64,000 nt of DNA from Candidatus Poribacteria bacterium (GCA_022820835.1 JAJEET010000123.1:3608-67607), one strand, 5' to 3'; shown: positions 32,897-57,590, counted from the stretch's first letter. The notes: a model not told the origin generated them from the sequence alone. Numbers and translations: made by a program.

Positions 32897-33059
32897 TCAA
32901 TGCCTCCATTAATAGTTATCAGTACGGAATCGGGTACGATTCCTTTCAGTTATCGGTTATCAGTTAAAAGAGGGTTGTGATAATTCCACAAGTCTCTTTC
33001 TGACAACTGAAAGGTTTTTCGCAGAAAACCGTACTGAAAACTGTTAACTGCGTACTCGC
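32897..33059. repeat. Composite palindromic intergenic element (two hairpin modules in opposite orientation, heptamer arms, AAGAG/CTCTT inner stem)
   Basis: The hairpin modules lie at 32920..32949 (+) and 33007..33036 (-). Between them are cagttat/cggttat/cagtt, then aaagag..ctcttt, then ctgacaactg. The end reads ctgttaactgcgtactcgc and abuts the stop of the next CDS. Confidence 0.75.
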
Positions 33060-35837
33060 CTATTTCAGAATCACCATTCGGCGGGTGCTTTCAAAATCAC
33101 CAGCGGTAAATGTGTAGAAATAGATCCCGCTAGCGACCATAGTCCCAGATTCGTTCCTACCATCCCAGTACGCAGCCTTCTCTCGGTTCTGGTAGTTACC
33201 CGGCTCCTGTAGTCCGATATTCAATTGGCGGACAAGCCTACCCCTGACATCATAGATTTTAACGGCAACCTCGGTTCTCTCGGCAAGATTGTACGGAAAC
33301 CATGTTTCAGGGTTAAACGGGTTCGGATAATTCTGGAAGATCATCGTCTGTTTGATATGTCCAAACGTTGTGAGTGTCTGCGATCCAAGATCGACAGGAA
33401 ACGGAACATCCGCAGAACGGAATCCGAGATCAATAGGATTATAGATAAACGCAGAGCCAGCATTATCACCAGCGTTATCATTGCCATCGGCACCGACGAT
33501 CGCGAACGAACCTCTGATACCAACCGAGGCACCGAAGCGGTCAAATCGGTTTGTACCGCTCGCAACAATTCTGCGCTTTTCGACCCAGCTCAACCCGTCC
33601 AGTAGAAAGGTGTAGGCTGAGCCTTTGTCGATCTGATCGGCAGGATCGTCACCCAAAAGCACAGGATGATCATCTTTCCATGCTCCGACGATTGCTGTGC
33701 CTTCATGAATTGCGACTGCTGACCCGAATTCATCACCTGACACGGTCCCAGCGGAAGTCAGTTTTGCTTGTTGTATCCAAGCCTCGCTTGTTTCTACAAA
33801 AATATAAGCGGTCCCCATATCTGTTTCATTCCGATCATCCTTAGGCGCACCGATGATCGCGACCCCATTCGTTAGATCGACAGCGTATCCGAATTCATCA
33901 CCGAGTCCACTGTCGTTTGGAATGAGCTGCGTGTTTTGCGTCCATGTGCCGCCGCTACGTGTAAAAATGTAAGCTGCGCCTGAATTCGGCCCTGCCGCGT
34001 CCGCCCCGTGTGCACCGATAAGCGCACTGTCGCCGTAGACAGCGACAGCAAAACCGAATAGATCCCCTGGCACAGCGTTTCGGTGCGTTAATTTTGCCTG
34101 CTGCGACCAAGAAGTACCGTTTCGGACAAAGACATAAGCAGCCCCCGTATCTACACCACCTTCATCCTTTCCATAAGCACCAACGATAACAGTATCTTCA
34201 TAAATAGCGAGTGCGGATCCGAACTGGTCGAACATACCGAGGTCATTACCGACCAATTTTGCCTGTTGGATCCAGTTGTCTCCCGAACGAATGAAGATGT
34301 ATGCGGCACCCGCTTCCGGGCCCGCGTCATCAACGCCGGGCGCACCAATAACCGCGGTTTCCCCGCTGATCGCAACAGTATTACCAAATAGGTCGCCTGC
34401 CTTCGCATCGTTGGCAATAATCTTCGCGCGTTCTAACCAGAGGACGTCACTCCGTTCAAAGATGTACGCGGCACCAGCGTTCGGCGCAACATCATCGTTT
34501 TGTTGCGCACCAGAGATCGCGAGATTCCCATGAATCGCTACCGAAATTCCAAACTGATCTTCCGATGCTGTTTCGCCATCGCTGAGCTTGATGTTCTCAA
34601 CCCATCCACCGCCATCTTTTTGCTCAAAAATATAAGCAGCACCAGAGTTGGGGCCCCCAGCACTGTGATACGGAGCACCCGCGATAACTTCGTTTCCACT
34701 GATGGCGACAGCAGCACCAAGTTGGTCCCCGCTGCTTCTATCACTCGCGACGAGTTTCGTGTGTTGGTTCCAGAATGGCGGTTCATTTTGTGTAAAAATG
34801 TAAGCGGCACCCACGGTATCTTCACCAACGATACCCGATCTCGCACCAATGACAGCCGTTTCACCACTAATATCGACCGAGACACCGAAAGAAGTTGCGC
34901 CATCGGGATCAATTGGGATCATACGGATACGGGTGCGATTCCTTTTTTGTAACCAGAACCTGCCCTCCTCGCGTTTATAGATATAAGCGGCACCGGTTTT
35001 CTCGTTGTTAGGTGAAGTCACAATAGCAAAATCACCATCAACATCGACGGCGTACCCAAAATTGTCACTTGCTTCGGTGTTGTTGCCGATGAGTTTCTTC
35101 TGGAATATCCAACCGGACGGGTCCCGTACAAATATATAAGCGGCACCGGCATTTTCACCGGCTTCGTCATCACGGATTGCGCCGATGATGGCTGTCCTAC
35201 CGTCAGTGCCGACAGAGAAACCGAAATTTGCGAATCTGCTGGCATCAGGGGCAGCGAGCACGGCTGTCTGGATCCATAAGTTGCCTCTTCGCTCGAAAAT
35301 GTATGCCGCTCCTGCGTCTGCGACAGGATTGTTGGCGCGATATGCCCCAACGAGTGCTGTGTCGCCAGCAATTGCAACTGAAATTCCGAAATAGTCCCCT
35401 GCCTTCGCGTCAAGGGCAACCAGTTTCATCTGCTCGACCCATTGTGTGCCTTGCCGCGCGAAAATATAAGCAGCACCTGAGTTCTTGCCTACATCGTCTT
35501 TCCTCGGTACACCGACGATGGCGTAGTCACCACTCATTGCAAGTTTTGTTCCGAATTCGTCATCAGCTGCCGAATCGCTGAGGTACAACTTTTGATGTTG
35601 TACCCATCCGGTTTCACTGCGGAAAAAGACATGGATTGAACCTGCATTTGCACCATTTTCGGTATCATCGTTCGGAACACCCACCATCGCATAGTCACCG
35701 CTTATACCGACACTCGTACCAAGATTATCGCTAACAACAGCAGCACTCGTATTCAGTTGCACCCTGTCGGCATTGCTGTGCAAGGCTAAACCGACTCCGA
35801 AAAACAAGGTTAGCATGGCAATCTGTAATCTCTTCAA
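33060..35837 (-). CDS. Secreted FG-GAP/integrin-alpha-like beta-propeller repeat protein with T9SS type A C-terminal sorting domain
   Basis: It has a signal peptide and about 14 repeats of ..DxFGxSVAIsGdxAvvGA..dD..G.naGAAYIF.r.g..W.q. The C-terminus reads FQNYPNPFNPETWFPY..VKIYDVRGRLVRQL..GIYFYTF (Por/T9SS CTD). The start is TTG 35837 or ATG 35816. Confidence 0.8.
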   Translation of the reverse strand: MKRLQIAMLTLFFGVGLALHSNADRVQLNTSAAVVSDNLGTSVGISGDYAMVGVPNDDTENGANAGSIHVFFRSETGWVQHQKLYLSDSAADDEFGTKLAMSGDYAIVGVPRKDDVGKNSGAAYIFARQGTQWVEQMKLVALDAKAGDYFGISVAIAGDTALVGAYRANNPVADAGAAYIFERRGNLWIQTAVLAAPDASRFANFGFSVGTDGRTAIIGAIRDDEAGENAGAAYIFVRDPSGWIFQKKLIGNNTEASDNFGYAVDVDGDFAIVTSPNNEKTGAAYIYKREEGRFWLQKRNRTRIRMIPIDPDGATSFGVSVDISGETAVIGARSGIVGEDTVGAAYIFTQNEPPFWNQHTKLVASDRSSGDQLGAAVAISGNEVIAGAPYHSAGGPNSGAAYIFEQKDGGGWVENIKLSDGETASEDQFGISVAIHGNLAISGAQQNDDVAPNAGAAYIFERSDVLWLERAKIIANDAKAGDLFGNTVAISGETAVIGAPGVDDAGPEAGAAYIFIRSGDNWIQQAKLVGNDLGMFDQFGSALAIYEDTVIVGAYGKDEGGVDTGAAYVFVRNGTSWSQQAKLTHRNAVPGDLFGFAVAVYGDSALIGAHGADAAGPNSGAAYIFTRSGGTWTQNTQLIPNDSGLGDEFGYAVDLTNGVAIIGAPKDDRNETDMGTAYIFVETSEAWIQQAKLTSAGTVSGDEFGSAVAIHEGTAIVGAWKDDHPVLLGDDPADQIDKGSAYTFLLDGLSWVEKRRIVASGTNRFDRFGASVGIRGSFAIVGADGNDNAGDNAGSAFIYNPIDLGFRSADVPFPVDLGSQTLTTFGHIKQTMIFQNYPNPFNPETWFPYNLAERTEVAVKIYDVRGRLVRQLNIGLQEPGNYQNREKAAYWDGRNESGTMVASGIYFYTFTAGDFESTRRMVILK

Positions 35838-35858
35838 TTCTTTTTTCCTCGGGAATGG

Positions 35859-35958
35859 CAGTCAGCAGTCAGCAGTCAGCAGTCAGCAAAGAGAAGAAAC
35901 GTTTATTTAACGCTTGCGTCTTTGCTGATGGCTGATGGCTAATGGCTAACGGCTAATT
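35859..35958. repeat. Palindromic element: (CAGTCAG)x4 arm, inner stem-loop, (GCTRAYG)x5 arm
   Basis: There are four perfect tandem heptamers at 35859..35886. The inner stem is gcaaag..ctttgc. The right arm gctgatg/gctgatg/gctaatg/gctaacg/gctaatt (35924..35958) runs into the 3' end of CDS 35939..36559. Confidence 0.8.
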
Positions 35959-36559
35959 GATAGATTTTTTTCGCTTTATCCTCGCCATACCACAATGCCG
36001 TGCCGTCCCATGTAAGTCCATGCGGCTCGTTTGGACATGAAACCGAATCGAGGACTTCACCGGTTTCCGGATGAATTCGGTAAATAACGTGGTCGTTTGT
36101 GTCGGCGTTCCAGAGTGCTTCGCCATCCCACGCCAACCCGTGCGCACGGCCCCCAGGTGTTTTCAATTCGGCAAGGATTTCACCGGTTTCTGGACACTGT
36201 TTGATAAATCGGCTCGTGTTCATGTCAACGCTCCAGAGGTGCTCACCGTCCCACGCCAACCCGTGCGGCCCCTCCGCTGGCGATGCAAAAGTCGTGACGA
36301 TTTCCAATTCGGGAACTGTCAGTTTATAAAATGTCTGTTGCCAGATGCTATTATACCAAAGATGCTCGCCGTCCCATTCTATACCGGCTCCACCGGGAAA
36401 TTCGGGTGTCAGCGTTAGTTCTATCTCGCCAGTTTCAGGATCGATCTTATGGACCGGACCGACACCTTCGACGCTCCAAAGTGAGGTGCCTTGCCAGGCA
36501 AGTCCATTCGTACCGGCGCCGGGTGCTGAAAGTTGGTGTGCGTTTGCTGCTTCACGCAT
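35939..36559 (-). CDS. Five-bladed beta-propeller repeat protein (glutaminyl-cyclase-like repeats)
   Basis: There are five ~40-aa repeats centred on (H)GL(A/T)WDG..LW. No signal peptide. The start overlaps the queG stop by 8 nt. The family assignment is tentative. Confidence 0.5.
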   Translation of the reverse strand: MREAANAHQLSAPGAGTNGLAWQGTSLWSVEGVGPVHKIDPETGEIELTLTPEFPGGAGIEWDGEHLWYNSIWQQTFYKLTVPELEIVTTFASPAEGPHGLAWDGEHLWSVDMNTSRFIKQCPETGEILAELKTPGGRAHGLAWDGEALWNADTNDHVIYRIHPETGEVLDSVSCPNEPHGLTWDGTALWYGEDKAKKIYQLAVSH

Positions 36560-37712
36560 CGTTGCTGTTTCTCCGTAGTGAATGCGCTATTTCTAAAAGC
36601 GCGTCCTGAATTTCAGTGATAACCTCATGTTCTGTCTCAACAGTAACTTGTGTTTGTAATATCTGCTCGGCATCTGTACCGCCTATCTGTCCGAGTGCCC
36701 ACGCTGCATGGCTCCGAACCAACGGCTCGTCATCGGTTAACGCTTTTCTAAGTGCCGGAACTGCCCGCTGATCTCCCCAATTGCCGATAGCGACAAGGAC
36801 ATTCCGCAAGAAACCGCGCCGTTTGGCACGTTTGATCGGACTCCCCTTGAATCTTCGACTGAACTCCTGCTGCGTCATACCGATAAGTGATAGTAAGGTC
36901 GGTGCCAAGTTTTCGGCACGCGGTTGAAACGCCGGATCGTCTGTCGGGACTGCTTTGCTGTTCCATGGACAAACTTCTTGACAAATATCACACCCATAGA
37001 TTAAGTTCCCCATCTTAGCGCGGAGCCCCTTCGGAATATGCTCCTTAAGTTCGATGGTTAGATAGGAAATACAGCGTCGGGAGTCCAAGAGATTCGGTTC
37101 AACAAATGCATCCGTAGGACACGCCTCAATGCAGCGTGTGCAAGTACCACAGCTCCCACGGATCGGAAGCGTTTCGGGCTCTAAGGCGATACTCACGAGT
37201 ATCTCTGCAAGGAAGTACCAAGACCCAGAACGCCAATGAATTAGGTTAGTGTTCTTGCCGATCCAACCGACTCCCGCTTTTTGGGCATACTCTCTCTCAA
37301 TAATCGGGGCAGTATCGACGCAGACGCGGACCTGTAATTCGGTCTCGGCGGTCTGCTTAATGAAATCGACGAGTTCTGAGAGTCGTTGACGGATGATGTC
37401 GTGGTAGTCGTCACCCCAGGCATACCTCGAAATCTGTCCACGTGCTGGGTCCTCCGCAAGTGCTTTCGGCGGGTCAAGTGTGTAATAGTTCATTGCCAAA
37501 CTGATAACAGATTTCGCCTCCGATAGAAGTTGACGGACATCCCTCTTGAGCGGAAGATGTTTTTCGAGGTAACCCATCTTTCCGGCATACCCGTTTTCTA
37601 TCCACTGCTGGTAACGCGCAATCGTTTCGCTCTGCGATGCGGGGATAATTCCGACAAGCTCAAATCCGAGCTTGTGTGCACGCCCTTGAATTTGTTCCGT
37701 TAGTGTTGACAT
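36552..37712 (-). CDS. queG: Epoxyqueuosine reductase with C-terminal HEAT-like repeats
   Basis: I set the start at Met17 of the track ORF (ATG 37712..37710). The two 4Fe-4S motifs are CGTCTRCIEACPT and CDICQEVCPWN. It also has ..AVDTAPIIEREYAQKAGVGWIGKNT.. and a HEAT tail ..DDEPLVRSHAAWALGQIG. Confidence 0.85.
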   Translation of the reverse strand: MSTLTEQIQGRAHKLGFELVGIIPASQSETIARYQQWIENGYAGKMGYLEKHLPLKRDVRQLLSEAKSVISLAMNYYTLDPPKALAEDPARGQISRYAWGDDYHDIIRQRLSELVDFIKQTAETELQVRVCVDTAPIIEREYAQKAGVGWIGKNTNLIHWRSGSWYFLAEILVSIALEPETLPIRGSCGTCTRCIEACPTDAFVEPNLLDSRRCISYLTIELKEHIPKGLRAKMGNLIYGCDICQEVCPWNSKAVPTDDPAFQPRAENLAPTLLSLIGMTQQEFSRRFKGSPIKRAKRRGFLRNVLVAIGNWGDQRAVPALRKALTDDEPLVRSHAAWALGQIGGTDAEQILQTQVTVETEHEVITEIQDALLEIAHSLRRNSNDA

Positions 37713-38779: not shown

Positions 38780-38914
38780 TTTTTTTAATTTCCCTTGCGG
38801 TTCGTTTAGGGTTTTCGCGGTGGGTGCGTCGTTCTCCGTTTATCCGCCTCCACTTCGTTTCGGCTAATCGTCCTGGTTAAAAAAAGAGAGATTCGTTTTC
38901 CACAATATACCTCT

Positions 38915-38935
38915 TAACTTATAACTTATAACTTA
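38915..38935. repeat. (AACTTAT)x3 perfect heptamer array upstream of pyrE
   Basis: aacttat aacttat aacttat lies directly before the pyrE start. The same unit recurs at 44146..44173 and, as cttataa, at 51731..51758. Confidence 0.8.
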
Positions 38936-38945
38936 TAATCAACAA

Positions 38946-39464
38946 ATGACAAAAACAGAACTCACAAAACAGATTCGCGAAGCATCGTATCTCACAGGTG
39001 AATTTAAACTTCGTTCCGGAAATATCAGCAATTTCTATTGGGATAAATACCGGTTCGAGAGTGATCCCCTCCTGCTCGCAGCAATCGCTAAAGAGATGGC
39101 GAAACTGCTTCCGCCAACCTGTGACGGATTGGCAGGCTTGGAATTAGGTGGTATCCCGCTCGCAACGGCACTCTCCATGCAGACGGGGATCCCCTGTTTC
39201 TACGTCCGTAAGGAAGCAAAAACCTACGGCACTTGCAACCTCATTGAGGGGGGTGCCAAAGACGATAGCACACTCGTCGTAATAGAGGACGTGGTTACAA
39301 CAGCAGGACAGGTATGTACGTCCATTCAACAGATCCGTGCGGAAGGGTACAACGTAGAGCACGTCGTAGCAGCCATCGATCGGCAAGCTGGCGGCGGTGC
39401 TAAAATTGAGGCACTCGGATGTTCGTTCGCATCCGTGTTCACACTCACAGAATTAGAAGCATAA
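38946..39464 (+). CDS. pyrE: Orotate phosphoribosyltransferase
   Basis: It has GEFKLRSGNISNFYWDKY and the PRPP-binding loop LVVIEDVVTTAGQ. Confidence 0.9.
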   Translation: MTKTELTKQIREASYLTGEFKLRSGNISNFYWDKYRFESDPLLLAAIAKEMAKLLPPTCDGLAGLELGGIPLATALSMQTGIPCFYVRKEAKTYGTCNLIEGGAKDDSTLVVIEDVVTTAGQVCTSIQQIRAEGYNVEHVVAAIDRQAGGGAKIEALGCSFASVFTLTELEA

Positions 39465-39590
39465 ATGGCTAGCGGCTGTCGGTAAGAATGGCTATCGGCT
39501 TTCAGCAAAGAGGCACTCGTTTAATCAAAAGTCTCTGGCTGACGGCTGACGGCTAATCTGCTGACAACTGATAGCCATCCATACGAAAGC
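39465..39590. repeat. Composite palindromic element with GGCTGAC/ATGGCTA-type heptamer arms
   Basis: The left arm is atggcta/gcggctg/tcggtaa/gaatggc/tatcggc. The centre is cagcaaagag..ctctggctg. The right arm is ggctgac/ggctgac/ggctaat/ctgctga/caactga/tagccat. Confidence 0.7.
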
Positions 39591-39602
39591 GATTAGGAGC
39601 AA

Positions 39603-40379: not shown

Positions 40380-40495
40380 GTAGCCGACAGTTGTCGGAAA
40401 CCTTCAGAAAAGAAAACTCTCACTGCAAGGCAGTTTTATAACGCTTGCATCTTTGCTGACTGCTGATGGCTGACAGCCAATGGCTAATGACTAAC
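40380..40495. repeat. Composite palindromic element (GCTGAYK heptamer arm abutting the xseA start)
   Basis: It begins tagccgacagttgtcggaaaccttcag. The shared core tttataacgcttgcatctttgctga compares with 35903..35928. The arm gctgact/gctgatg/gctgaca/gccaatg/gctaatg runs from 40455 to 40495. Confidence 0.7.
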
Positions 40496-41737: not shown

Positions 41738-41833
41738 TGCCACATCTAAACGGAAACTGATAACTGAAAACTGAAAGGTTTTCGTAGTAAACCGTACTGA
41801 GTACTGACAACCATTTCCCAATGGAGATACTAA
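41738..41833. repeat. Intergenic element with AAACTGA heptamers and one hairpin module
   Basis: aaactga/taactga/aaactga lies at 41754..41774. It is followed by the module ctgaaa-ggttt-tcgtagt-aaacc-gtactg (41771..41799, minus orientation). Confidence 0.7.
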
Positions 41834-42028: not shown

Positions 42029-42141
42029 ATAGCACTCCTTAAAGTTCCCGCTATGGGGAATTTAGGCGGTTTATAGCAATACCTGCAATTAACGATACAT
42101 CATAGAAATTGGGTTTCAGACCCGCTACATAATACAACACT

Positions 42142-42180
42142 GCAGGCGAGGTTTCAAACCCCGCAAAATAATAGGATTTA
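42142..42180. repeat. Decayed partial copy of the GC-hairpin MITE-like element immediately upstream of dxs
   Basis: gcaggcgagg-tttcaaa-ccccgc followed by aataggattta. Its orientation relative to the downstream start codon is the same as copies A and B. Confidence 0.5.
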
Positions 42181-42183
42181 TAC

Positions 42184-44037
42184 ATGTTCTTAGAAAAAAT
42201 TAATACCCCCGCAGATCTTAAAAAACTTGAAATAGATGAACTTAAAGTCCTCGCGCAAGAGATGCGCGACTATCTACTAACAGTCCTATCTGAACATGCC
42301 GGGCATTTCGCCCCTAACTTCGGAACCGTCGAATTAGCAATAGCCTTGCATGCCGTCTTTGATACACCACGCGATAAAGTTATATGGGACATCGGACATC
42401 AGGCATATCCACATAAACTGCTAACAGGGAGGAGAGAAGCGTTCCCAACACTCAGACAGAGTGGAGGCATCAGCGGATTCCTCACCAGATCAGAGAGTGA
42501 ATATGACGTTTTCGGTGCAGGGCATTCCAGTACCTCTATCGCCGCCGCATTAGGTATCGCCACCGCACGAGACCTCATTAATGAAACTTACAAAGTCGTC
42601 GCAGTGATCGGGGATGGCGGGTTAACTGGTGGCATGGCGTTTGAAGCATTGAACGCCGCAGGCGACTTCAAGAACGATATGGTCGTTATCCTCAACGATA
42701 ACAACATGTCCATTTCTGCAACTGTCGGTGCATTCTCAAAACATTTCCACAAACTCACAAGTTCACCACAGTACAACTTCCTACGCTCTGGCGTCAAAGA
42801 GTTGCTGAACTTAATACCAGCAGATGCAACGCAGATCGCACGCAAAATTGAGGCATCATTGAAACCCGGCACCCTATTTGAGGAATTCGGGTTCCGATAC
42901 TTCGGACCCCTCGACGGAAATGACTTAAAAGCACTGATTCCAGTGCTAACCGGTATCCGTAAACTCACAGGTCCTATCCTGCTCCACGTCGTAACCGAAA
43001 AAGGACGCGGCTACGCACCCGCAGAAGCTGACCCAGTCGGGTTCTATAGTGTCAGTGGTCCCTTCAACCTGAAAACGGGAAAAACTCTGAAACCAAAACC
43101 GCCGATACCGACCTATACGGAAGTGTTCAGCCGAACACTCATTGAACTGGCGAAACGCGACGCACGCGTCGTCGGTGTAACCGCAGCGATGCCGGGCGGA
43201 ACTGGATTGGATAAATTCGGCAACGCCTTTCCGAATCGATGCTTCGATCTCGGATTGGCGGAACAGTGCGCCGTCACGTTTTCCGCAGGACTCGCAGCAC
43301 AAGGAATGCGTCCCGTCACCGCGATTTATTCGACCTTCCTTCAACGGAGTTACGACCAAGTCCTACACGATGTCTGCATCCAAAAACTCCCCGTTGTCTT
43401 CGCTTTGGATAGAAGTGGACTCGTCGGGGCAGACGGTCCAACACACCACGGGGTCTTCGATCTGGCATTCCTCCGTTCAATCCCAAACATCGTCGTGATG
43501 GCACCGAAAGATGAAAACGAATTACAATCTATGGTCAAGACCGCACTCACGTATGAAGAGGGACCCATTGCGTTCCGTTACCCACGCGGGACAGGCATCG
43601 GTGTAAAAATCGCAGCAGAGCCGGAATCCATACCCATCGGAGAAAGCGAAATTGTCAGAGAGGGCAACGATATACTTGTCATCGCTATTGGGAACCGCGT
43701 CTATCCAGCACTTGAGGCAGCACAGACGTTAGCCGATACCGGTATTTCCGCAACGGTTGTCAACGCGCGATTTGTAAAACCGTTAGACACTGCAACAATC
43801 CTGCCGCTCGCGGAACAGATCCGCAAAGTTATTACGATTGAAGACGGTGTACGCATGGGCGGGTTCGGGAGTGCAGTTCTGGAGGCTATCGCAACTGCTG
43901 GTATCACAGACATTCAAGTTATGAACCTCGGTATCCCTGACGAATTCATTGAACACGGTGATATACAACATCTCCATGCACTATGTCAATGCGATGCTGA
44001 CGCTGTTGTCCGCACCGCAGAGAAAATGCTAAAATAG
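42184..44037 (+). CDS. dxs: 1-deoxy-D-xylulose-5-phosphate synthase
   Basis: It reads INTPADLKKL..DIGHQAYPHKLLTGR..GHSSTSI.AALG, has the TPP motif GDGGLTGGMAFEALN..LNDN, and has DRSGLVGADGPTHHG. Confidence 0.95.
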   Translation: MFLEKINTPADLKKLEIDELKVLAQEMRDYLLTVLSEHAGHFAPNFGTVELAIALHAVFDTPRDKVIWDIGHQAYPHKLLTGRREAFPTLRQSGGISGFLTRSESEYDVFGAGHSSTSIAAALGIATARDLINETYKVVAVIGDGGLTGGMAFEALNAAGDFKNDMVVILNDNNMSISATVGAFSKHFHKLTSSPQYNFLRSGVKELLNLIPADATQIARKIEASLKPGTLFEEFGFRYFGPLDGNDLKALIPVLTGIRKLTGPILLHVVTEKGRGYAPAEADPVGFYSVSGPFNLKTGKTLKPKPPIPTYTEVFSRTLIELAKRDARVVGVTAAMPGGTGLDKFGNAFPNRCFDLGLAEQCAVTFSAGLAAQGMRPVTAIYSTFLQRSYDQVLHDVCIQKLPVVFALDRSGLVGADGPTHHGVFDLAFLRSIPNIVVMAPKDENELQSMVKTALTYEEGPIAFRYPRGTGIGVKIAAEPESIPIGESEIVREGNDILVIAIGNRVYPALEAAQTLADTGISATVVNARFVKPLDTATILPLAEQIRKVITIEDGVRMGGFGSAVLEAIATAGITDIQVMNLGIPDEFIEHGDIQHLHALCQCDADAVVRTAEKMLK

Positions 44038-44180
44038 TTATAAGTTATAAGTACGGTTTTTCTGCGAAAAACCTTTCAGTACTCAGTTAAAGAGGTTCTC
44101 TGTGGCAACCTTCACAGAGAACAGAACTGTTCCAAGAACCTTCTTAACTTATAACTTATAACTTATAACTTACCACCATT
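44038..44180. repeat. ~140-bp nested palindromic element (GTTATAA arms, hairpin module, 10-bp inner stem)
   Basis: The left arm is gttataa x2 (44038..44052) and the right arm is aacttat x3-4 (44146..44173). The hairpin module lies at 44051..44079. The inner perfect stem is gttctctgtg / cacagagaac. Confidence 0.8.
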
Positions 44181-45188
44181 ATGCAACGGATAGACACTTT
44201 TCTGGTAGAACACAATTTAGTTGACAGCCGCGAACAAGCGAAACGACTCATCTTGGCAGGCGCAGTAACAGTTAACGGAAACGCCAACATCAAGCCGGGA
44301 CAGCGGATTCCCGATGACGCAGAGGTCATCGTTAAAGAACGCCAAAAATATATCAGTCGTGGCGGGTTCAAACTCGAAAAAGCGTTAAGCACCTTCAATG
44401 TAAACGTGCAAAATCGGGTCGCACTTGATGTAGGGGCATCTACCGGCGGATTTACAGATTGTCTCCTCCAACACGGGGCAAAATTCGTCTATGCCGTTGA
44501 TGTCGGATACGGACAACTCGCATGGAAACTACGAAAACACCCGCAGGTACAGTCTATTGAGAAGACGAATATCAGACATTTAACGCTGCCACTTTTAAGT
44601 AGAGGCGAGGCTACCTCAACCCTACACTTGACCAAGAACTCGTGCCTTAGCAAAAATATCGGTAGCCGAGTTCTTGGTCAAAGCGAAGACTTTATCTCTA
44701 TCGCTGTGATTGACGTCTCCTTTATTTCTCTACGGACGGTTTTGCCGAGCGTCATCAAACTCTTGACACAGCAAAATAGCCGTCAGTCGTCAGCCAACAG
44801 CCGTCAGCAAGAGAGCTCTGGTTTAACAAACAACCTCTTAACTGACGGTTTCCGAAAGCCGATGGTTTCCGACAGTCATTATGATATCATCGCACTGCTC
44901 AAACCGCAGTTTGAAGCCGGAAAAGCACACGTCAAAAAAGGTGGGATTGTGTCCGATAAACAGGTGCATATCGAAACAATAGACAACCTCAGCACTTTCG
45001 CTACGGAGAAACTCGGCGCGACGGTACAAGGGGTAACCTATTCACCAATCCATAAAGCTATCGGTAATATTGAGTACCTGCTATGGCTAACGATGGAGCC
45101 AAATATACAAACGGATGCATTCGGAGATGAAACACCGCAAACGACGGCTGAAGTCGTCGCTGAGGCACACGATTTTTTCAGGGGATAG
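44181..45188 (+). CDS. tlyA: TlyA-family 16S/23S rRNA (cytidine-2'-O)-methyltransferase carrying two repeat-derived in-frame insertions
   Basis: It has the S4 domain RIDTFLVEHNLVDSREQAKRLILAGAV.VNG, then YISRGGFKLEKAL, LDVGASTGGFTDCLLQHGA..VYAVDVGYGQLAWKLR, DVSFISL, KPQFEAGK and GNIEYLLWL. It is about 60 aa longer than typical family members. Confidence 0.85.
   Translation: MQRIDTFLVEHNLVDSREQAKRLILAGAVTVNGNANIKPGQRIPDDAEVIVKERQKYISRGGFKLEKALSTFNVNVQNRVALDVGASTGGFTDCLLQHGAKFVYAVDVGYGQLAWKLRKHPQVQSIEKTNIRHLTLPLLSRGEATSTLHLTKNSCLSKNIGSRVLGQSEDFISIAVIDVSFISLRTVLPSVIKLLTQQNSRQSSANSRQQESSGLTNNLLTDGFRKPMVSDSHYDIIALLKPQFEAGKAHVKKGGIVSDKQVHIETIDNLSTFATEKLGATVQGVTYSPIHKAIGNIEYLLWLTMEPNIQTDAFGDETPQTTAEVVAEAHDFFRG
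44628..44683. repeat. Perfect 15-bp-stem palindrome inside the tlyA coding sequence
   Basis: ttgaccaagaactcg (44628..44642) pairs with cgagttcttggtcaa (44667..44681). A near-identical copy is intergenic at 57419..57471 and carries a compensatory G/C swap in both arms. Confidence 0.8.
44778..44876. repeat. Complete heptamer-armed palindromic element (99 nt = 33 codons) inside the tlyA coding sequence
   Basis: The order is agccgtc/agtcgtc/agccaac/agccgtc, then aagag..ctctt, then ctgacgg/tttccga/aagccga/tggtttc/cgacag. This is the same architecture as the intergenic elements at 39465..39590 and 40380..40495. Confidence 0.7.
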
Positions 45189-45190
45189 CG

Positions 45191-51589: not shown

Positions 51590-51766
51590 TAGCGGGTACG
51601 CAGTTATAGATACGGATTTCTGCGAAATCCTTTTAGTTAACAGTTAACAGTTAAGAGGGCTCTTGTACTTATAACTGAAAGTGAGCGTAGCGAATGTACT
51701 ACGTACTTACAACTTTAAATCAACCACGTACTTATAACCTATAACTTATAACTTATAACCATTCCA
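51590..51766. repeat. Composite palindromic intergenic element between tamB-like and bamA-like genes
   Basis: It contains gggtacgcagtta (51594..51606), the hairpin module at 51611..51636, gttaaca x3 (51636..51656), ctgaaagtgagcgtagcgaat, and cttataa/cctataa/cttataa/cttataa (51731..51758). Confidence 0.8.
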
Positions 51767-54700
51767 ATGTACACATCGTTCCTACATTACAGATCAATAA
51801 CTCGCTCACTCTCCGTTCTAATGCTTTGCGTTTTTTTCGGACAATCTGCAAGCGCAGCGGAAGAACTTTCTGAGCATCCAAGCGCAGAGAAAATTACCCT
51901 ACACGAGGCGTTTGACGCAACGCGTATCATAAAAATTGTGTATTACATTGATGGGATACTTGTCTCCGAGACAACAACACAACTCAGACCCCTCAGCAAC
52001 CGATCAGCGGTACATGTCGGCGCCAAATTATCTCAGCACGCCATCCAACAGAGCATTAAGCTACTCTACAAAACACAGCAATTTTCCCAAATTCAGGTTT
52101 ATGAGCAAGAGACCCCGAATGGCATAATCTTAACATATCAATTCACATCCTTTGAACCTATCAAAGCGATTAAACATATCGGTATCCTTGAGAACGACGA
52201 ATTTGAACAAACTATTCAGGACGTAATGAAATCGAAAGTTGGCGGAAAATATGTCCCGGCAATCGCGAAAGCCGATATTAAACGTATCAAACAGGTCTGT
52301 GAAGATTATGGGTATTTCAACGCACGAATTACGGTCTCTGACGCGCTAACTGATGACGGGATGTTAACTTACCAGATAGATGTAGGTGTACCATCTATTA
52401 TCCGTGAATTGCAAATTCAGGGCAACCAAGCCATCTCAACGGGCCACCTTAAAGCAGCTTGCGGATTCAGTAACCAACAACCTTCTCCGATTTATAACAA
52501 ATCCGACGTAGATACCGATGTGGCAGCCATGCTGAAACTCTATCGAGAAAGCAGCTATCCTACCGCTGGCATCGAATCAAACTTTATACCTGAAACCGGC
52601 ATCCTACAGTTTCGTGTTGATGAAGGCAAAGAGATAACGTTCAATTTCGTCGGTGACCTTTCGTTATCGCAACAAGATACATTCGAAGAAGATATAGCCA
52701 ACTTGATAAACGCTGCAACCCAGTCTATGTGGAAGAGAAGGATAAAATCTTATTTTGAAGACTTGGGGTATCAAGACACAACCGTCGAAAGCCTGAATGA
52801 AACCAGCGTTCGGCTTACGATTGATCCCGGTACGCAATACAGGGTTGCCAGCGTTACTTTTTCCGGAAACCGTGTGTTCTCGGACGCAGACCTCCTACGA
52901 GAGATGACAGTCAAACCGACGAGCGGCCTTAGGCGTAACTTACAACTTTCCAATGTTATCACACAACTGCTACCGGGACAAACACAGAAACCTTTTTTCG
53001 ATCCACAGGATCTTGATACAGATGAACATCGACTCAGGATTTTATACGAAAAAGCAGGCTATCCGAATCGTGACATACAGACGTATGTTGAGAAACAGCC
53101 ACCAAATAGACAAAATATCGGTGAAGCTGCAATACATGTTTTAATTAATGAAAACTATAAAGAGGTCATTCACCGATGTGAGATTACCGGTAATCGAGCG
53201 ATAGATACTGCCAAACTCCTAAAACGTTTGGAAAAAGAACTGCCGCTCCCGCAACCGAATGCACGCTTTGAAAAAACGGTCTACCAAAACGCGCTCCTAA
53301 GTGTATATCGTGAGCTCGGATACAATGACGTGGAGGTTAAGAACACTTATATCCCTGAAACAGAAACACCAATTTTTCGAGTCGCAGGCGATTTTTCGGA
53401 ATCGCTTGCCGATGGGGAGCTCCCACCCGAACTTCAAAACGAATTTGAAAAACACAAACGACCCCTGAGCGGACTTTTCATCGCCAATAATATCGACAAT
53501 CGTTGGAGCATCCAAGATATTGAGAGCAACCCGCGTTATACACTCATACAAGAAACGACAGAACTGCAGGTATTTGAACACGGTATCCTACATCTTACCG
53601 TCAATAAGGAAGGTGAACAGGTCACATTCGGCAAATTCTATTTTCAAGGCGACACCGACGTTGTGATACGCCGTATTCTTGAACGGGAAGTAGCACATCT
53701 TAACGGTAAACTTTGGACACCAGAGGCGTTAAGCCTTGCCTTGCGAAATCTTGACAGTTTAGGCATCTTCCGTAAAATTGAAGCCACGCCACTCGAAACC
53801 GCTGTAAACAGTACAACCAACGGCAACTCTCCTTCCACAGTAAAAACTAAAGACGTTGTTATAACAGTCGAAAAACAACAACCGAGAACTTTTAGATACG
53901 GTGCCGGTTATGGGATCGCAGAAGGGTGGCGCACCACTTTAGAACTAACTGATAGCAACTTTCTCTTTAAGCGAAATGTACGAGGGCGCGTCCGCGGTAG
54001 ATTAGCATGGCGAGATGAACTCGGATACCTTCTCGAAGCAAGAATTACACAACCCTGGTTAATCTGGCGGATACAAGGTAGTCTACAAGCATCCGCTAAA
54101 AAGTTAGAGGTAGACGATAATGTACGCGCACTCGAAGGCAGCTTCATCCTCAACAGGCGATTAAGGGAATCGAATTACTTAGATTTCCGATACAGTTACC
54201 GAGATTTGAACCAACCGATACTACCGATAATGCCAGACCTCTCACCCGCAACCGGTGTTTTTGAAGAACAGAACCCATTCCGCACAACGGTGAGCAGCTT
54301 ACGCCTCTCGTGGACTTATGATAGCCGTGTACAGTTTCTGAATCCGGTAGGCGGTATGTTCAACGAGATTACACTCGAATATGCCGGAGGTTTCCTGCAA
54401 GGCGAAACCAGTTTTATTAAAACGACAACGGATACCCGATATTACCAAAAACTCATCGGAGATTTCGTATTAGCGACCGTACTACGATTGGGGGTTACCA
54501 CTGGATTACGTTCAAATCGTCGTGCCGAACTTATTTCGTTTGAACGGTTCTGGGCTGGCGGCGGCACAACGGTTCGCGGGTATGCCGAACGATCCCTCGG
54601 ACCCGAAGACATCGCTGGCACCCACCGGGGCGATGTTCAATTCATCTTTAATACAGAGTTACGATTCCCGATCTATTGGTTAATCCGGGGCGCACTCTTT

Positions 54701-54901
54701 TTCGATACAGGCAACGTCTGGGATTCATTGGAGGATATCAGAACGATGCCGATCACACAACTACCATCGGCAGCGGGTGCCGGACTCTATTTGGACTTTG
54801 GCGCATTCACATTCGGGGTCGACTATGCCTTCCCGATCGTCCACGTTCCGAGCTCGCCAGACACAAGACGCGCCCACTTTCGTCTCGGTAGTACTTTTTA
54901 A
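51767..54901 (+). CDS. bamA: BamA/Omp85-family outer membrane protein assembly factor (1044 aa, extended POTRA region)
   Basis: It has a signal peptide and repeated POTRA-like units (I..I.I.GN..). The C-terminal barrel reads ..FERFWAGGGTTVRGY..FNTELRFPI....GALFFDTGNVW.. and ends ..FRLGSTF. Confidence 0.85.
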   Translation: MYTSFLHYRSITRSLSVLMLCVFFGQSASAAEELSEHPSAEKITLHEAFDATRIIKIVYYIDGILVSETTTQLRPLSNRSAVHVGAKLSQHAIQQSIKLLYKTQQFSQIQVYEQETPNGIILTYQFTSFEPIKAIKHIGILENDEFEQTIQDVMKSKVGGKYVPAIAKADIKRIKQVCEDYGYFNARITVSDALTDDGMLTYQIDVGVPSIIRELQIQGNQAISTGHLKAACGFSNQQPSPIYNKSDVDTDVAAMLKLYRESSYPTAGIESNFIPETGILQFRVDEGKEITFNFVGDLSLSQQDTFEEDIANLINAATQSMWKRRIKSYFEDLGYQDTTVESLNETSVRLTIDPGTQYRVASVTFSGNRVFSDADLLREMTVKPTSGLRRNLQLSNVITQLLPGQTQKPFFDPQDLDTDEHRLRILYEKAGYPNRDIQTYVEKQPPNRQNIGEAAIHVLINENYKEVIHRCEITGNRAIDTAKLLKRLEKELPLPQPNARFEKTVYQNALLSVYRELGYNDVEVKNTYIPETETPIFRVAGDFSESLADGELPPELQNEFEKHKRPLSGLFIANNIDNRWSIQDIESNPRYTLIQETTELQVFEHGILHLTVNKEGEQVTFGKFYFQGDTDVVIRRILEREVAHLNGKLWTPEALSLALRNLDSLGIFRKIEATPLETAVNSTTNGNSPSTVKTKDVVITVEKQQPRTFRYGAGYGIAEGWRTTLELTDSNFLFKRNVRGRVRGRLAWRDELGYLLEARITQPWLIWRIQGSLQASAKKLEVDDNVRALEGSFILNRRLRESNYLDFRYSYRDLNQPILPIMPDLSPATGVFEEQNPFRTTVSSLRLSWTYDSRVQFLNPVGGMFNEITLEYAGGFLQGETSFIKTTTDTRYYQKLIGDFVLATVLRLGVTTGLRSNRRAELISFERFWAGGGTTVRGYAERSLGPEDIAGTHRGDVQFIFNTELRFPIYWLIRGALFFDTGNVWDSLEDIRTMPITQLPSAAGAGLYLDFGAFTFGVDYAFPIVHVPSSPDTRRAHFRLGSTF

Positions 54902-54904
54902 TGC

Positions 54905-55870
54905 CTATTCCGATTCCGCATAAGGTTTCCCGAGCGCAAGGGGTGCCTCAGCACGTCCGACAAATCCCGCCAACACCGCTAAACAGAGCAGATACGGTAA
55001 CATCAACCATAACTGGTACGGGATCCCCCAACCCAACGCTTGGAACCGCGCATCAAGTGCCGAACCGAGTCCGAAGAGTAACGCAGCACCGCACGCCTTC
55101 ACAGGATGCCATTTCCCAAAGATGACGATCGCCAAAGCGATGAACCCACGCCCAACCGTCATACCGGGTGTAAAATACGGGACATCCGCAAGCGAAAGAT
55201 AACCACCTGCCATACCCACCATCGCGCCCGCGAATAATAGACAAAACGTCCGTAAACGCAGGACATTAGAACCGACTGTCGCAATCGCTTTCGGATGCTC
55301 ACCACACGCACGGATCCGCAGTCCGAGTTGTGTATGGTACAAGAAAAAATAGACACACGGCAGCAGTAGGAATGTGATGAAAACGAGAATATTGTGTGAA
55401 AACAGCGCACGTCCAAGAAACGGGATTTTAGACAAGAGTGGGATGTCAATCTGCTGAAACGCCGGAACGCCTTGGGCAATACCTGTCACACCGAAGAGCC
55501 GTTGATAGATAACCTCTGTTAAACCCAACGCCAGAAGCGTCATCGCTGTACCGACGATAACTTGGTCTCCACGCAGGCGGATAGCGAATAACGCAAAAAG
55601 TGCTGCAGCGGCAAGTCCACCGAGTCCAGCCATAAAAAGACCCGCCCACGGTGCCATCAGGGGTGCCATCATAGCGAGTCCTGGGATGTAGAGCATCGCT
55701 AATTTTTCCGCGTAGAAGGAACCTACCATCCCGAAGAACGCACCGATGAGCATCATCCCTTCAATACCGATGTTAAGAACACCCGCACGCTGCGAAATGA
55801 CTTCACCTAATGCTGCGAGTAGGAGCGGTGTCGCCCCACGAATCGTTGCCGAAAGAATATCTTCAAACAT
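54905..55870 (-). CDS. ABC transporter permease (nucleoside/BMP-family system, YufQ/NupQ-like)
   Basis: 321 aa and about 9 hydrophobic segments. ..GATPLLLAALGEVISQRAGVLNIGIEGMM.. is typical of BPD_transp_2 permeases. Confidence 0.85.
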   Translation of the reverse strand: MFEDILSATIRGATPLLLAALGEVISQRAGVLNIGIEGMMLIGAFFGMVGSFYAEKLAMLYIPGLAMMAPLMAPWAGLFMAGLGGLAAAALFALFAIRLRGDQVIVGTAMTLLALGLTEVIYQRLFGVTGIAQGVPAFQQIDIPLLSKIPFLGRALFSHNILVFITFLLLPCVYFFLYHTQLGLRIRACGEHPKAIATVGSNVLRLRTFCLLFAGAMVGMAGGYLSLADVPYFTPGMTVGRGFIALAIVIFGKWHPVKACGAALLFGLGSALDARFQALGWGIPYQLWLMLPYLLCLAVLAGFVGRAEAPLALGKPYAESE

Positions 55871-56105
55871 ACTTTTAACTATTAAGTTCCTGCTCGTTTT
55901 TCTCCGTTGTCGAAAAACGGTTTTCTTTTACGTTATACCAATTCTAATTGAAAATGTCTCTTTTTTGTACCACAAACTTCCAGTTTGTGTCATAAAAACA
56001 ACTACCATAAGAATCGCCTAATGAGATAATAATATAGAAATTGTATTATTACGATAAAGGAACACATTGATCTGCCACTTTCTATTGATTGCTGAAAATC
56101 TATGG

Positions 56106-57185
56106 CTATTCGGAATGCGAAGGCTCACGTTTTCGGAAAAGCTGGATAGAACCATAGCCGATAACGAAAAGTAGGATTGTCGCTTGCATCACAAAGGTGA
56201 CTTTATCAGAAATCCCCACCGTTCGCTGCATACTGTATGAGCCAGTCGATAACGCACCAAACAACAGTGCAGCAGCAACCGTTACCAAAGGATTCAACTT
56301 CGCCAACAATGCCACCGCAATCGCTGTATAGCCATATCCCGGTGAGAAATTGAGAAATAAACGACGGGTCAGTGCTGTCAGTTCAATCGCGCCACCGAGC
56401 CCAGCAAGTGCACCACTAATGAAAAAGACACGAAGCGTGTTATGCACAATCGAAATCCCTGCTGCTTCCGCTGCAGCTGCACCCTCTCCTACAGCGCGGA
56501 GTTGGTAACCAAACGCTGTCCGAAATAGAATAAACGTAAGGACAATCGCTAACACGACAGCGATAACAATGCCGAAGTGGATCCGATGCGGCGGAAAAAG
56601 TCGTGGGAGAAATACCCACTCCACAATCCGATCGCTCTGTGGCCCTCGCTCGGATGCCTCCTGTAACGGACCCCCATCTATCATCATGCTGACCAGATGG
56701 ATAGCGACGTAATTCAGCATAATCGTACTAATCACCTCGTTGACACCACGTGTCACCTTGAGAACAGCCGGGATAAGTCCCCATACGCCCCCCGCGAGCA
56801 TCGAAAGGACAAGACACACTGGTACTGCAATCCATGTATTCTCCGGAAACAGCGTGGCAAGTCTCGTCCCGAACCATGTCGCTGCCAATGCGCCTATCAG
56901 AAACTGCCCTTCCGCACCGATGTTCCAAATACCGCAACGAAACGCCATAGCGACGGAAAGTCCAGTCATCAGAAACGGCGTGCTTTTTACCAATGTTTCA
57001 CCGAATTTCCGACTGTTCCCGAAGGCACCACTCAGTGCTGCTTGATATGCCTCTAAAGGGTTGTAGTTACACAGCAGCATTATAACGGCGTTAACCATAA
57101 AAGCACCCGCCAGAATTATAAAGGGCGCCATCAACCAGTGAATAATGTTGATTCTTTTTAATATGTTGACTAATTTCGATACCAT
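56106..57185 (-). CDS. ABC transporter permease (nucleoside/BMP-family system, YufP/NupP-like)
   Basis: 359 aa. It reads ..TPFLMTGLSVAMAFRCGIWNIGAEGQF.. and has multiple TM segments. Confidence 0.85.
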   Translation of the reverse strand: MVSKLVNILKRINIIHWLMAPFIILAGAFMVNAVIMLLCNYNPLEAYQAALSGAFGNSRKFGETLVKSTPFLMTGLSVAMAFRCGIWNIGAEGQFLIGALAATWFGTRLATLFPENTWIAVPVCLVLSMLAGGVWGLIPAVLKVTRGVNEVISTIMLNYVAIHLVSMMIDGGPLQEASERGPQSDRIVEWVFLPRLFPPHRIHFGIVIAVVLAIVLTFILFRTAFGYQLRAVGEGAAAAEAAGISIVHNTLRVFFISGALAGLGGAIELTALTRRLFLNFSPGYGYTAIAVALLAKLNPLVTVAAALLFGALSTGSYSMQRTVGISDKVTFVMQATILLFVIGYGSIQLFRKREPSHSE

Positions 57186-57590
57186 GTTTTAAGCGAGTAC
57201 GCAGTTATAAGTATAGGACTTACGCATTTCCTCTTAAAGTCCCCCTGATAAGGGGGATTTAGGGGGTTTAAAGAACGAAAATTACCGATTTTTGCGTCTA
57301 AATGCTCGATATTTGCTCAATTTGCGTAAGTCCTGAAGTACTCACTACGGTTGCTGCGCAACCTTTCAGTTTTAGAAGTTAACAGTACTCAGTACGTTCG
57401 CTACGCTCACTTTCAGTTTTGACCAACAACTCGTGCCTTAGTAAAAGTATCGGAGTCGAGTTGTTGGTCAAAGTTAAGAGGTGTTGGAATTATCGCATCC
57501 CTCTTTTAACTGTTAACTGCGTACTGAAAGGCGTACTCGCCGTACTGAAAACTAATGCCCTGAAAGGCGTACCCGCCGTACCGTTAACTG
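57186..57590. repeat. 405-bp composite repeat region inside the ABC transporter operon
   Basis: It contains gagtacgcagtta (57195..57207) and a 124-bp TIR element (57213..57336, aggacttacgc / gcgtaagtcct). It has three full hairpin modules (57345..57369, 57524..57547, 57560..57583) plus a variant with the same GTAC/TTTCAG flanks at ~57390..57416, and the 15-bp-stem palindrome (57419..57471). The end reads ccgttaa/ctgttaa/ctgcgta. Confidence 0.85.

Follow-up and report, generated by a model that had tools for sequence, protein, structure and literature searches.

The stretch of Candidatus Poribacteria DNA analyzed here (GCA_022820835.1, JAJEET010000123.1:3608-67607), which is called the window at its full length of 64,000 nucleotides (nt), carries a small hairpin module in five of its intergenic spacers, namely those between QueF and an FG-GAP protein, XseA and XseB, DXS and TlyA, TamB and BamA, and an ABC ATPase and its permease. 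The module consists of an unpaired CAGTAC, a self-complementary core, and an unpaired TTTCAG(T). Poribacteria are uncultivated sponge symbionts known only from metagenome-assembled genomes (MAGs) and single-cell genomes, and the window genes share 77-88% DNA identity with the Candidatus Poribacteria genomes jk18x27bins.53, WGA-3G, and PCPOR1. Our analysis revealed that the module is the palindromic unit of Poribacteria-specific mosaic intergenic repeats built on CAGTNNT heptamers, and that species differ in the resulting composites through dispersal, replacement, gain, and loss, while a composite can also lie in frame within a gene. A literature search returned no paper linking Poribacteria with heptamer repeats, repetitive extragenic palindromic (REP) sequences, MITEs (miniature inverted-repeat transposable elements), or such a motif; the repeat family is previously undescribed, and its combination of invariant unpaired flanks with a hypervariable, perfectly paired stem is unusual.

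A preliminary description of the window had listed eight copies of the hairpin. Rereading of the sequence located all eight, and the claim that the hairpin is real, recurrent, and intergenic was borne out: the window contains 12 matches to the pattern AGTAC-N(12-26)-TTTCAG where 0.27 would be expected, a number reached in 0 of 100 shuffles. The list was also complete for the window, since a covariance model built from nine copies outside it (R1) and run unfiltered over the full 64 kb recovered exactly these eight (E from 7e-11 to 0.22). Beyond them, R1 twice matched an imperfect subtype that shares these flanks and has the core (G/A)TTCGC-TAC-GCTCAC with 4/6 pairs, and it gave one chance match within a gene at 30708. 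The modules of the window are as follows.

32920..32949, plus strand: module CAGTAC-GGAATCG/ggta/CGATTCC-TTTCAG, left arm of composite A (R1 22.3 bits)
33007..33036, minus strand: module CAGTAC-GGTTTT(C)tgc(G)AAAAACC-TTTCAG, right arm of composite A (R1 45.5 bits)
41771..41799, minus strand: module CAGTAC-GGTTT(A)C/tac/G(A)AAACC-TTTCAG (R1 34.4 bits)
44049..44079, plus strand: module AAGTAC-GGTTTTTC/tgc/GAAAAACC-TTTCAG (R1 54 bits)
51607..51636, plus strand: degenerate-flank module (TA)GATAC-GGATTTC/tgc/GAAATCC-TTTTAG (R1 23.6 bits)
51675..51708, minus strand: imperfect-subtype module AGTAC-ATTCGC/tac/GCTCAC-TTTCAG, 4/6 pairs (R1 12.6 bits)
57343..57369, plus strand: module CACTAC-GGTTGC/tgc/GCAACC-TTTCAG (R1 22.9 bits)
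57390..57416, plus strand: imperfect-subtype module CAGTAC-GTTCGC/tac/GCTCAC-TTTCAG (R1 16.2 bits)
57524..57547, minus strand: module CAGTAC-GGCG/agta/CGCC-TTTCAG (R1 match)
57560..57583, minus strand: module CGGTAC-GGCG/ggta/CGCC-TTTCAG (R1 15.1 bits)

Several details required adjustment. The pairing held, but the stems are often longer than first drawn, as in GGAATCG/ggta/CGATTCC and GGTTTTTC/tgc/GAAAAACC, and the statement that they are always perfectly self-complementary was slightly too strong, because copies 33007 and 41771 are imperfect next to the loop. The former has four T opposite five A, a one-base difference in run length, and its counterpart at locus L053 (L numbers denote module loci from the genome scan given below) is a perfect 8-bp stem version; the latter has one A.A mismatch once the stem is extended to a 3-nt loop. 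Similarly, the flanks are invariant in general but have degenerate 5' sides at 51611 (GATAC) and 57345 (CACTAC), the copy at 51611 also having a degenerate 3' flank (TTTTAG). The GGCG/agta/CGCC core of copy 57524 is carried by nine further loci. The imperfect core was seen again in L019, L032, and L035 and, with its arms swapped, in L007 and L113; flip/flop inversion as the source of the swapped form was rejected, because GTTCGC-TAC-GCTCAC and GCTCAC-TGC-GTTCGC are not reverse complements.

The cores follow a simple grammar in which G(G)-N-T(0-6)-(G)C leads into a loop, either T(G,A,C)C or (A/G)GTA, and the mirror arm follows, with GCtgcGC as the smallest form; they measure 11-23 nt, or 23-35 nt with the flanks. 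Pairs are almost exclusively Watson-Crick, G.U pairs are nearly absent, and imperfections are mostly unequal T/A runs. Stem length and GC fraction are inversely related (r = -0.85), long stems being AT-rich and short ones GC-rich, and this trade-off confines the predicted RNA stability; for the commonest forms the prediction is -6 to -7.5 kcal/mol in the case of RNA and -3 to -6 in the case of DNA. Read from the complementary strand, the loop is C-GNA-G, known as a very stable DNA minihairpin. Perfect stems were found in 67 of 75 copies with exact flanks versus 16 of 25 with degenerate flanks (p = 0.011), so that stem and flank integrity track together, indicating joint decay as expected for live versus decaying copies. 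A module length in multiples of 7 was considered and discarded, since it holds for cores of 19 and 12 nt and fails for the equally common cores of 17 and 15 nt.

None of the copies is a stand-alone small module, contrary to how they were first presented; each is embedded both in an array of tandem heptamers and in a palindromic composite of larger size. The window spacers are full of AGT/ACT-phased tandem heptamers (AGTTATA, AGTTAAC, CAGTTTT, CAGTACT, and others), with 17 in-phase heptamer triples in the window against 0.5 in shuffles and 22-30 arrays per 100 kb in Poribacteria DNA versus 0.2-0.8 in controls. Across 82 copies the flank consensus reads a.TAGTTAT CAGTTnT CAGTAC, hairpin, TTTCAG TTnTCAG TTA..AG, with 88-99% conservation at positions outside the ascertained pattern, and it therefore places CAGT on both sides of the hairpin in register with the CAGTNNT array. 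Modules occupy one or both arms of palindromic composites of approximately 100-160 nt, whose layout runs from a gene-proximal start (C)GAGTACGCAGTTA through heptamers, zero to two modules, and further heptamers to a central TTAAGAGG-variable hairpin-CCTCTTAA and then into the mirror arm. The modules are polar within this layout: the TTTCAG side faces the central AAGAGG...CCTCTT hairpin, an AAGAG/AGAGG center lying at most 42 nt downstream of the module in 40 of 82 copies and upstream in 6. Inverted module pairs surround such a center at 32920/33007 and at 57343+57390/57524+57560. The two modules within one composite carry different cores, so that each module pairs within itself and not with the other one. 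The composites as wholes fold better than shuffles (z = -5.6 to -7.5). The composites and related arrays of the window are listed below.

32911..33049: composite A, which fills the QueF/FG-GAP spacer; heptamers, module (plus), heptamers, AAAAGAGGG..CTCTTT center, module (minus), heptamers (fold z = -6.1)
41754..41812, minus strand: half-composite with one arm in the XseA-XseB spacer; ACTGATA ACTGAAA ACTGAAA-hairpin-GTACTG AGTACTG ACAACC
44033..44180: composite C in the DXS-TlyA spacer; AGTTATA array, module, AAAGAGG center hairpins, TAACTTA array (z = -7.5)
51593..51763: composite D, which fills the TamB-BamA spacer; GGGTACGCAGTTA start motif, AGTTAAC and TATAACT/C arrays, AAGAGGG center
57194..57607: composite E in the ABC ATPase/permease spacer; start GAGTACGCAGTTA, two modules (plus), 55-nt TTGACCAACAACTCG hairpin element, AAGAGG..CCTCTT, two modules (minus), end TAACTGCGTACTC (fold z = -5.6)
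3465..3585: heptamer-array palindrome of the same scaffold family without a hairpin module
35856-35960, 38900-38940, 39465-39580, and 40440-40480: similar module-less heptamer palindromes

To follow the module beyond the window, its flanks alone were searched as CAGTACGG-N(6-20)-CCTTTCAGT, with the flanks and the outer GG/CC fixed and the interior free, over 185,579 species-representative genomes, which gave at least 118 loci; counts of the L-numbered module loci refer to the matches listed. Among these, Poribacteria contributed at least 63 matches at no fewer than 61 loci in at least 29 assemblies, and 63 of the 63 cores are perfectly self-complementary, with stems of 4-10 bp, at least 18 different stems, and loops of 3-4 nt in all but four. 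The matches listed from other taxa number 57. Two of them, which have the label "uncultured bacterium" and a GC content of 48-49%, resemble the module and probably come from Poribacteria, while of the remaining 55 from other phyla, 50 show the forced GG/CC plus 0-1 bp only and 5 form chance stems of 5-6 bp around loops of 6-10 nt; the sole cyanobacterial flank match among those listed (L109) has no hairpin. In a control set of 921 kb of DXS loci from metagenomes (non-Poribacteria, 50-56% identical), there were three flank matches, none with a hairpin, and the covariance model matched once, weakly, compared with 101 matches in 542 kb of Poribacteria DNA. Viral contigs of IMG/VR yielded 15 flank matches and 0 hairpins. 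If the densities of 10 copies in 64 kb and approximately 26 unascertained copies in 478 kb are extrapolated, about 300-900 copies per genome result, and the family thus probably occupies several hundred spacers in each.

The covariation noticed in the window was confirmed outside it, in an alignment that was itself fitted to the model: 99.5% of cells are paired, and six of eight pairs show two-sided changes. Compensatory (two-sided) cells numbered 52 versus 10.3 in shuffles, with 0 of 500 shuffles as high, and sliding the partner column along the alignment destroyed the pairing signal. Both the observation and the covariation are real and phylum-wide in Poribacteria. What the covariation implies is a separate matter, and the inference of a selected DNA or RNA hairpin, which the preliminary description drew from it, survives in part only: the covariation stands, but in view of the orientation, spacer, and coding-sequence evidence set out below it does not demonstrate a selected RNA hairpin.

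Comparison between species revealed that the composites turn over. Composite A is 95% identical over 140 nt to L053 2003-2142 from another species, where the element alone aligns and sits between AnmK and NamZ instead of between QueF and the FG-GAP protein. In L006, whose genes are 85-88% identical to those of the window, the edges of the QueF/FG-GAP spacer are conserved and the contents are different, the element there being the reverse complement of the DXS-TlyA element of the window (44033-44180) at 90.7% identity. The XseA, XseB, DXS, and TlyA spacers vary by species (window, PCPOR1, WGA-3G), holding a two-module composite, a heptamer palindrome, or nothing, and the XseA-XseB half-composite is absent in the PCPOR1 ortholog L082. 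In L048 a left arm carries a module where the ortholog L115 has heptamers only, and L012 and L034/L049 share a composite of approximately 90% identity at non-orthologous sites with different cores, GGGCtgcGCCC versus GGATTTCtacGAAATCC. The preliminary description had named duplication of larger segments as a refutation, and this applies in part: the modules are parts of larger dispersed composites, although the eight window copies are not recent duplicates of one another.

The core is the fastest-changing part of the repeat, yet it stays Watson-Crick paired. Paired changes were seen at orthologous positions in L048/L115 (GGTTTTTCtccGAAAAACC vs GGTTTGCtgcGCAAACC), L005/L102 (GATTTTTC..GAAAAATC vs GGTTTTC..GAAAACC), and L007/L074 (GGGTTGCtac vs GGAGCtgc), and at a second L005/L102 site the loop is 14 nt longer in L102. 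Because the cores change faster than the surrounding repeat, DNA-level processes such as templated repair, conversion among copies, or the turnover of a mobile repeat fit at least as well as selection for structure. Identical core alleles are shared by unrelated contexts and genomes, five in the case of GGATTACtgcGTAATCC and ten in that of GGCGagtaCGCC. Within composite C, the two arms agree except for an additional 35 nt in the left one, an AC-hairpin-TTTCAGTACTCAGT insertion bounded by AGT: the right arm, reverse-complemented, reads ...AAGTTAT AAGTTAAGAAGG, and the left reads ...AAGTTAT AAGT(AC-hairpin-TTTCAGTACTCAGT)TAAAGAGG, which accounts for the AAGTAC flank of copy 44049. This single example suggests, as far as two arms can be compared by eye, that the module may have entered the composite as an insertion.

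Some further observations concern the same loci. The gene for a 546-aa thiamine-pyrophosphate enzyme (30836-32476, minus strand), located between a 271-aa gene and QueF in the window, is absent in L006, where 323 nt (4493-4816) with a hairpin module (GGTTGCtacGCAACC) and a 55-nt hairpin element take its place. That element belongs to a second small family of approximately 55 nt, TT(G/A)ACCAnnAACTCG...CGAGTTnnTGGT(C/T)AA, located in the window at 57418-57477 and 44628-44683 (four arm matches versus 0.15 expected) and elsewhere in L047 (~6110-6165), L006, L119, L062, and L089. In L047 it directly follows a module and is absent from the 87-91% identical ortholog L028, which marks it as an independent insertion family. 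A motif CTCTCACTGC(G/A)AGGCA also recurs in composites (L102 4042-4084, window ~40400-40425, L048, L028). At L102 4042-4084 it lies within the module loop, where the L005 ortholog (581-609) has a plain TGC loop, so that loops can host nested insertions; its CTCACTGCG part is common to the imperfect module subtype.

The repeats also enter coding sequence. In the window, the rRNA methyltransferase gene tlyA (44181-45188) reads through two repeat-derived segments:

~44628-44683: 55-nt TTGACCAAGAACTCG...CGAGTTCTTGGTCAA hairpin element in tlyA, with its intergenic counterpart at 57420-57475
44778..44880, plus strand: heptamer-palindrome composite in frame in tlyA, of the same family as the intergenic composites

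The PCPOR1 tlyA (L082 398-1444, minus strand) is likewise uninterrupted, and both sites hold insertions there too, although these differ in sequence; the one at the site of window 44778-44880 contains a hairpin module. Relative to solved structures (PDB 3hp7_A), the TlyA insertions amount to approximately 27 and 35 aa.

The interpretation towards which we lean, if by a small measure, is that of a non-autonomous selfish mosaic repeat maintained at the DNA level, resembling the REP sequences and bacterial interspersed mosaic elements (BIMEs) of proteobacteria and the small dispersed repeats (SDRs) of cyanobacteria. Under this mechanism, composites would be copied, moved, or recombined as DNA, with the hairpin extruding in single-stranded DNA and the acting agent reading the invariant single-stranded flanks together with the shape and stability of the hairpin, not the sequence of its stem. 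Perfect pairing might then persist in two ways, through a pool of long-lived core alleles exchanged between copies via the invariant flanks and heptamers, and through the mirroring of one-arm changes, mainly T/A-run slippage, onto the other arm by intrastrand template switching. Its main rival, which we judge rather unlikely while continuing to take it seriously, is a cis-acting RNA hairpin on polycistronic mRNAs, in which the hairpin with its single-stranded CAGUAC/UUUCAG flanks would shield the ends of transcripts or direct an RNase or an RNA-binding protein to them, and the long duplex of heptamer arms would form an RNase III-type processing site, neighboring cistrons thereby differing in stability. 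Such differential stability has been reported for REP/BIME elements in E. coli, and the two readings are not mutually exclusive, because REP/BIME elements are both. The gene context is compatible with an RNA role in that all five module-bearing window spacers lie between co-directional genes, often functionally linked (XseA-XseB, TamB-BamA, ABC ATPase-permease), as do 62 of 71 spacer-assigned modules, with 5 divergent and 4 convergent. The background, however, is 192/31/23, meaning no preference for spacer type (87% co-directional for modules versus 78%). In co-directional spacers, 30 modules are sense and 31 antisense to transcription (21 and 21 in single-module spacers), so half would expose complementary flanks as RNA; sense copies lie early and antisense copies late within the spacer. 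As many as 81 of 84 copies lie outside long open reading frames (ORFs), yet one is within an ORF and translated through. Moreover, orthologous spacers often have no module or a different element, and the near-absence of G.U pairs and the lack of an Rfam match also count against an RNA: Rfam 15 returned no family at gathering threshold in the whole window, and permissive searches gave only noise in the whole window at E<=10 and in two module-bearing spacers alone, with no known Poribacteria motif emerging. A related RNA explanation, an intrinsic terminator or attenuator consisting of the hairpin followed by UUUCAGUUUUCAG, draws on the T-rich 3' flank and on the closeness of many copies to the end of a gene (10-60 nt, with a median of 31 nt). 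We consider it scarcely credible and rejected it on orientation, stem composition, and spacer type, since the stems are short and AT-rich, with -6 to -7.5 kcal/mol in their commonest forms, the T tract is interrupted, half of the copies are antisense, convergent gene ends are not enriched, and copies occur between the genes of obvious operons and inside tlyA.

Several results nevertheless weigh against the DNA-level repeat. The predicted hairpin energy occupies a narrow band whatever the stem length (mean -8.35 kcal/mol, standard deviation 1.95 versus 3.42 for a composition-matched null, with 0 of 1000 null draws as narrow), and modules are often kept at orthologous spacers with strictly compensated stem changes; both are equally expected from purifying selection on a functional hairpin, and the folding of whole composites far beyond shuffles also favors an RNA role. 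Retention and constraint keep the RNA explanation alive, while it loses weight through the balanced orientation, the copy within coding sequence, and the turnover, and effects on mRNA processing or stability are probably secondary. Other adverse points concern mobility itself: all evidence of movement comes from comparison between species, the Poribacteria loci were ascertained via the module with GG...CC fixed, which biases the stem catalogue, and in 542 kb of Poribacteria loci no mobilizing enzyme was found. A MITE would have terminal inverted repeats, a target-site duplication, and a related autonomous insertion sequence with the same ends. The inverted arms of composites begin (A)ATAGTTAT/ATGGTTGT; in the Poribacteria loci no autonomous parent was found, the inverted module pairs enclosing no transposase and only Pup/proteasome and sulfatase/peptidase (housekeeping) genes, and no clear target-site duplication was seen at the window/L006 or window/L082 junctions. 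The suggestion that the hairpin is REP-like or a transposition substrate pointed to the right neighborhood, although no cognate transposase was found at the modules in these loci. In its strict form, a true REP family mobilized by a REP-associated tyrosine transposase (RAYT), GTAC would correspond to the GT(A/G)G head and the inverted doublets to the transposing unit (REPINs, REP doublets forming hairpins). The 5'-foot tetranucleotide, the inverted doublets around a spacer, and the mosaic clusters do match REP/REPIN/BIME elements (PMC2817692, PMC3116915), in which the GT(A/G)G head stands at the 5' end and the rayt gene lies between two inverted cognate REPs (PMC2817692). Searching for RAYT/IS200-like genes revealed that Y1_Tnp genes do exist in Poribacteria, at L007 5636-6119 (minus strand) and L074 2738-3227 (minus strand), IS200-like with 97 bits to PF01797. 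These are the only ones in the 542 kb and represent one orthologous site, so that chance co-occurrence is compatible with them; they stand 0.56-1.45 kb from the nearest module and are bracketed on both sides by unrelated GCACTCCnnnGGAGTGC/TTGCTCCAGCGGAGCAA hairpins next to CTATAGA (GCACTCC..GGAGTGC and TTGCTCC..GGAGCAA), which looks like a separate RAYT/REP-like system. Considering also that the module head is GTAC, that REP families keep their stem sequence whereas module stems are hypervariable, and that doublet arms with different cores permit no REPIN-type pairing between arms, mobilization by RAYT is in our judgment very unlikely. A bolder version of the DNA-level repeat, which we put forward as an unlikely but consequential conjecture, would make the module itself a class of micro-mobile elements of approximately 30 nt, inserting at the AGT of CAGTNNT arrays via a putative single-strand DNA enzyme that reads structure and is blind to stem sequence.

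Other repeats and matches in the window lie apart from the module. An 11-mer, GGACTTACGCA/TGCGTAAGTCC, is present seven times where 0.8 would be expected, in many cases with two inverted copies enclosing other sequence, and also in L019, L027, L097, and L103; its window sites are:

12948-12958, 57216-57226, 57323-57333, and 60687-60697: 11-mer GGACTTACGCA/TGCGTAAGTCC, plus three one-mismatch sites

GC-rich hairpin repeats with a CTAC/GTAG-type foot, such as GGTGCGGTTnGGAAACCGCACC-TACCGGG and TTGTAGTA-GGGCAATTCATTGCCC, were found at L007 6404-6426 and 6515-6537, L025 2652, L063 7092, and L092 96, and in the window at 42090-42170 and 60705-60730 (GGGTTTCAGACCCGCTACA; GCGAGGTTT(C/G)AAACCCCGC); they are classical REP-like hairpins distinct from the module. 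A G/C-run hairpin at 57241-57270 (CCCCCTGATAAGGGGGATTTAGGGGG) matched part of RAGATH-25 weakly (16.9 bits, E = 0.11), probably by chance. At 62990-63048 (plus strand), right after an ORF at 61922-62995, a sub-threshold but strong match to SECIS_3, the bacterial selenocysteine insertion element (52.8 bits versus a gathering threshold of 63, E = 2.4e-9), begins at the apparent stop codon. The ORF may encode a selenoprotein with UGA read through.

These results bear on how such patterns are read in general. "Textbook covariation" need not mean a selected RNA, as stems here are hypervariable, strictly Watson-Crick, and orientation-independent within a DNA repeat that is turning over. The family shapes operon spacers and even protein sequence, as in TlyA, and it will confound the assembly and binning of MAGs, gene calling, and structured-RNA searches in Poribacteria. 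If the module were a micro-mobile element, no SDR-like element would have been described outside cyanobacteria before it, and a single undescribed machinery for DNA processing, common to two unrelated phyla, would lie behind their heptamer arrays with nested hairpins and would remodel coding sequences in frame as well.

Among known systems, the Rickettsia palindromic elements, which are units of 100-150 nt with conserved sequence, reportedly insert in frame and are translated as extra surface segments (attributed to Ogata et al. 2000). They can be likened to the present composites by behavior only, since here too a palindromic repeat lies in frame in a protein gene, TlyA, in two species, whereas the Rickettsia elements have no heptamer scaffold and no variable-core module and belong to an unrelated lineage. 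V(D)J heptamer/nonamer signals and integron attC sites were also considered and set aside, because their spacing does not fit and the module flanks do not pair together. Quasipalindrome correction, in which template switching creates perfect stems and homogenizes the arms of inverted repeats (PMC8794818, PMC13100816), would explain changes from one arm to two and the keeping or expansion of perfect stems without stepwise compensatory selection; as a general mutational mechanism, it gives no account of the invariant flanks or of dispersal. With the REP, BIME, and REPIN sequences of gamma-proteobacteria the module shares its form as a short extragenic palindrome with many copies per genome (10 in 64 kb, 101 in 542 kb), the alternating orientation in mosaics with other conserved linker motifs, the inverted doublets around a spacer, and palindromy kept through complementary changes. 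It departs from them in its (CA)GTAC head, present in 76-81 of 81-82 copies per position in place of GT(A/G)G, in its unconserved stems and heptamer-array scaffold, and in that no module-flanked rayt gene was found in the 542 kb of loci.

The closest analogue, compared by description only, appears to be the cyanobacterial SDRs found in heptamer arrays. According to Elhai et al. 2008 (Genome Res 18:1484), SDR4-6 reportedly lie within tandem heptamer arrays of short tandemly repeated repetitive (STRR) sequences, some with a predicted hairpin, and the unit is said to measure about 21-27 nt and to interrupt otherwise conserved sequence. The STRR1 and STRR3 units of cyanobacteria are CCCCAGT and CAACAGT, and the CAGT core is thus common to both sets of heptamers. 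The likeness extends to very small units embedded in tandem heptamers and MITE-like elements, to the register of the module with CAGTNNT arrays on both sides and its core of similar scale, and to the interruption of conserved sequence (the 35-nt insertion in 44033-44180, L048 versus L115, and presence or absence in orthologs). The differences are the phylum and the conserved unpaired flanks around a hypervariable core; moreover, SDR5 inserts precisely within the highly iterated palindrome HIP1 (PMC5861425, PMC4390886, citing the SDR work), of which the window has one site in 64 kb, and SDRs were reported in Nostocaceae only (PMC5861425). A cyanobacterial origin of the window, to which its heptamers had pointed, was rejected on this single HIP1 site and on its closest DNA relatives, which are Poribacteria MAGs at 77-88% identity. 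With the Poribacteria repeats there are two independent cases in which very small hairpin modules lie inside heptamer arrays of the CAGT type, which makes the STRR/SDR phenomenon comparable across phyla and the responsible enzyme approachable by phylogenetic profiling.

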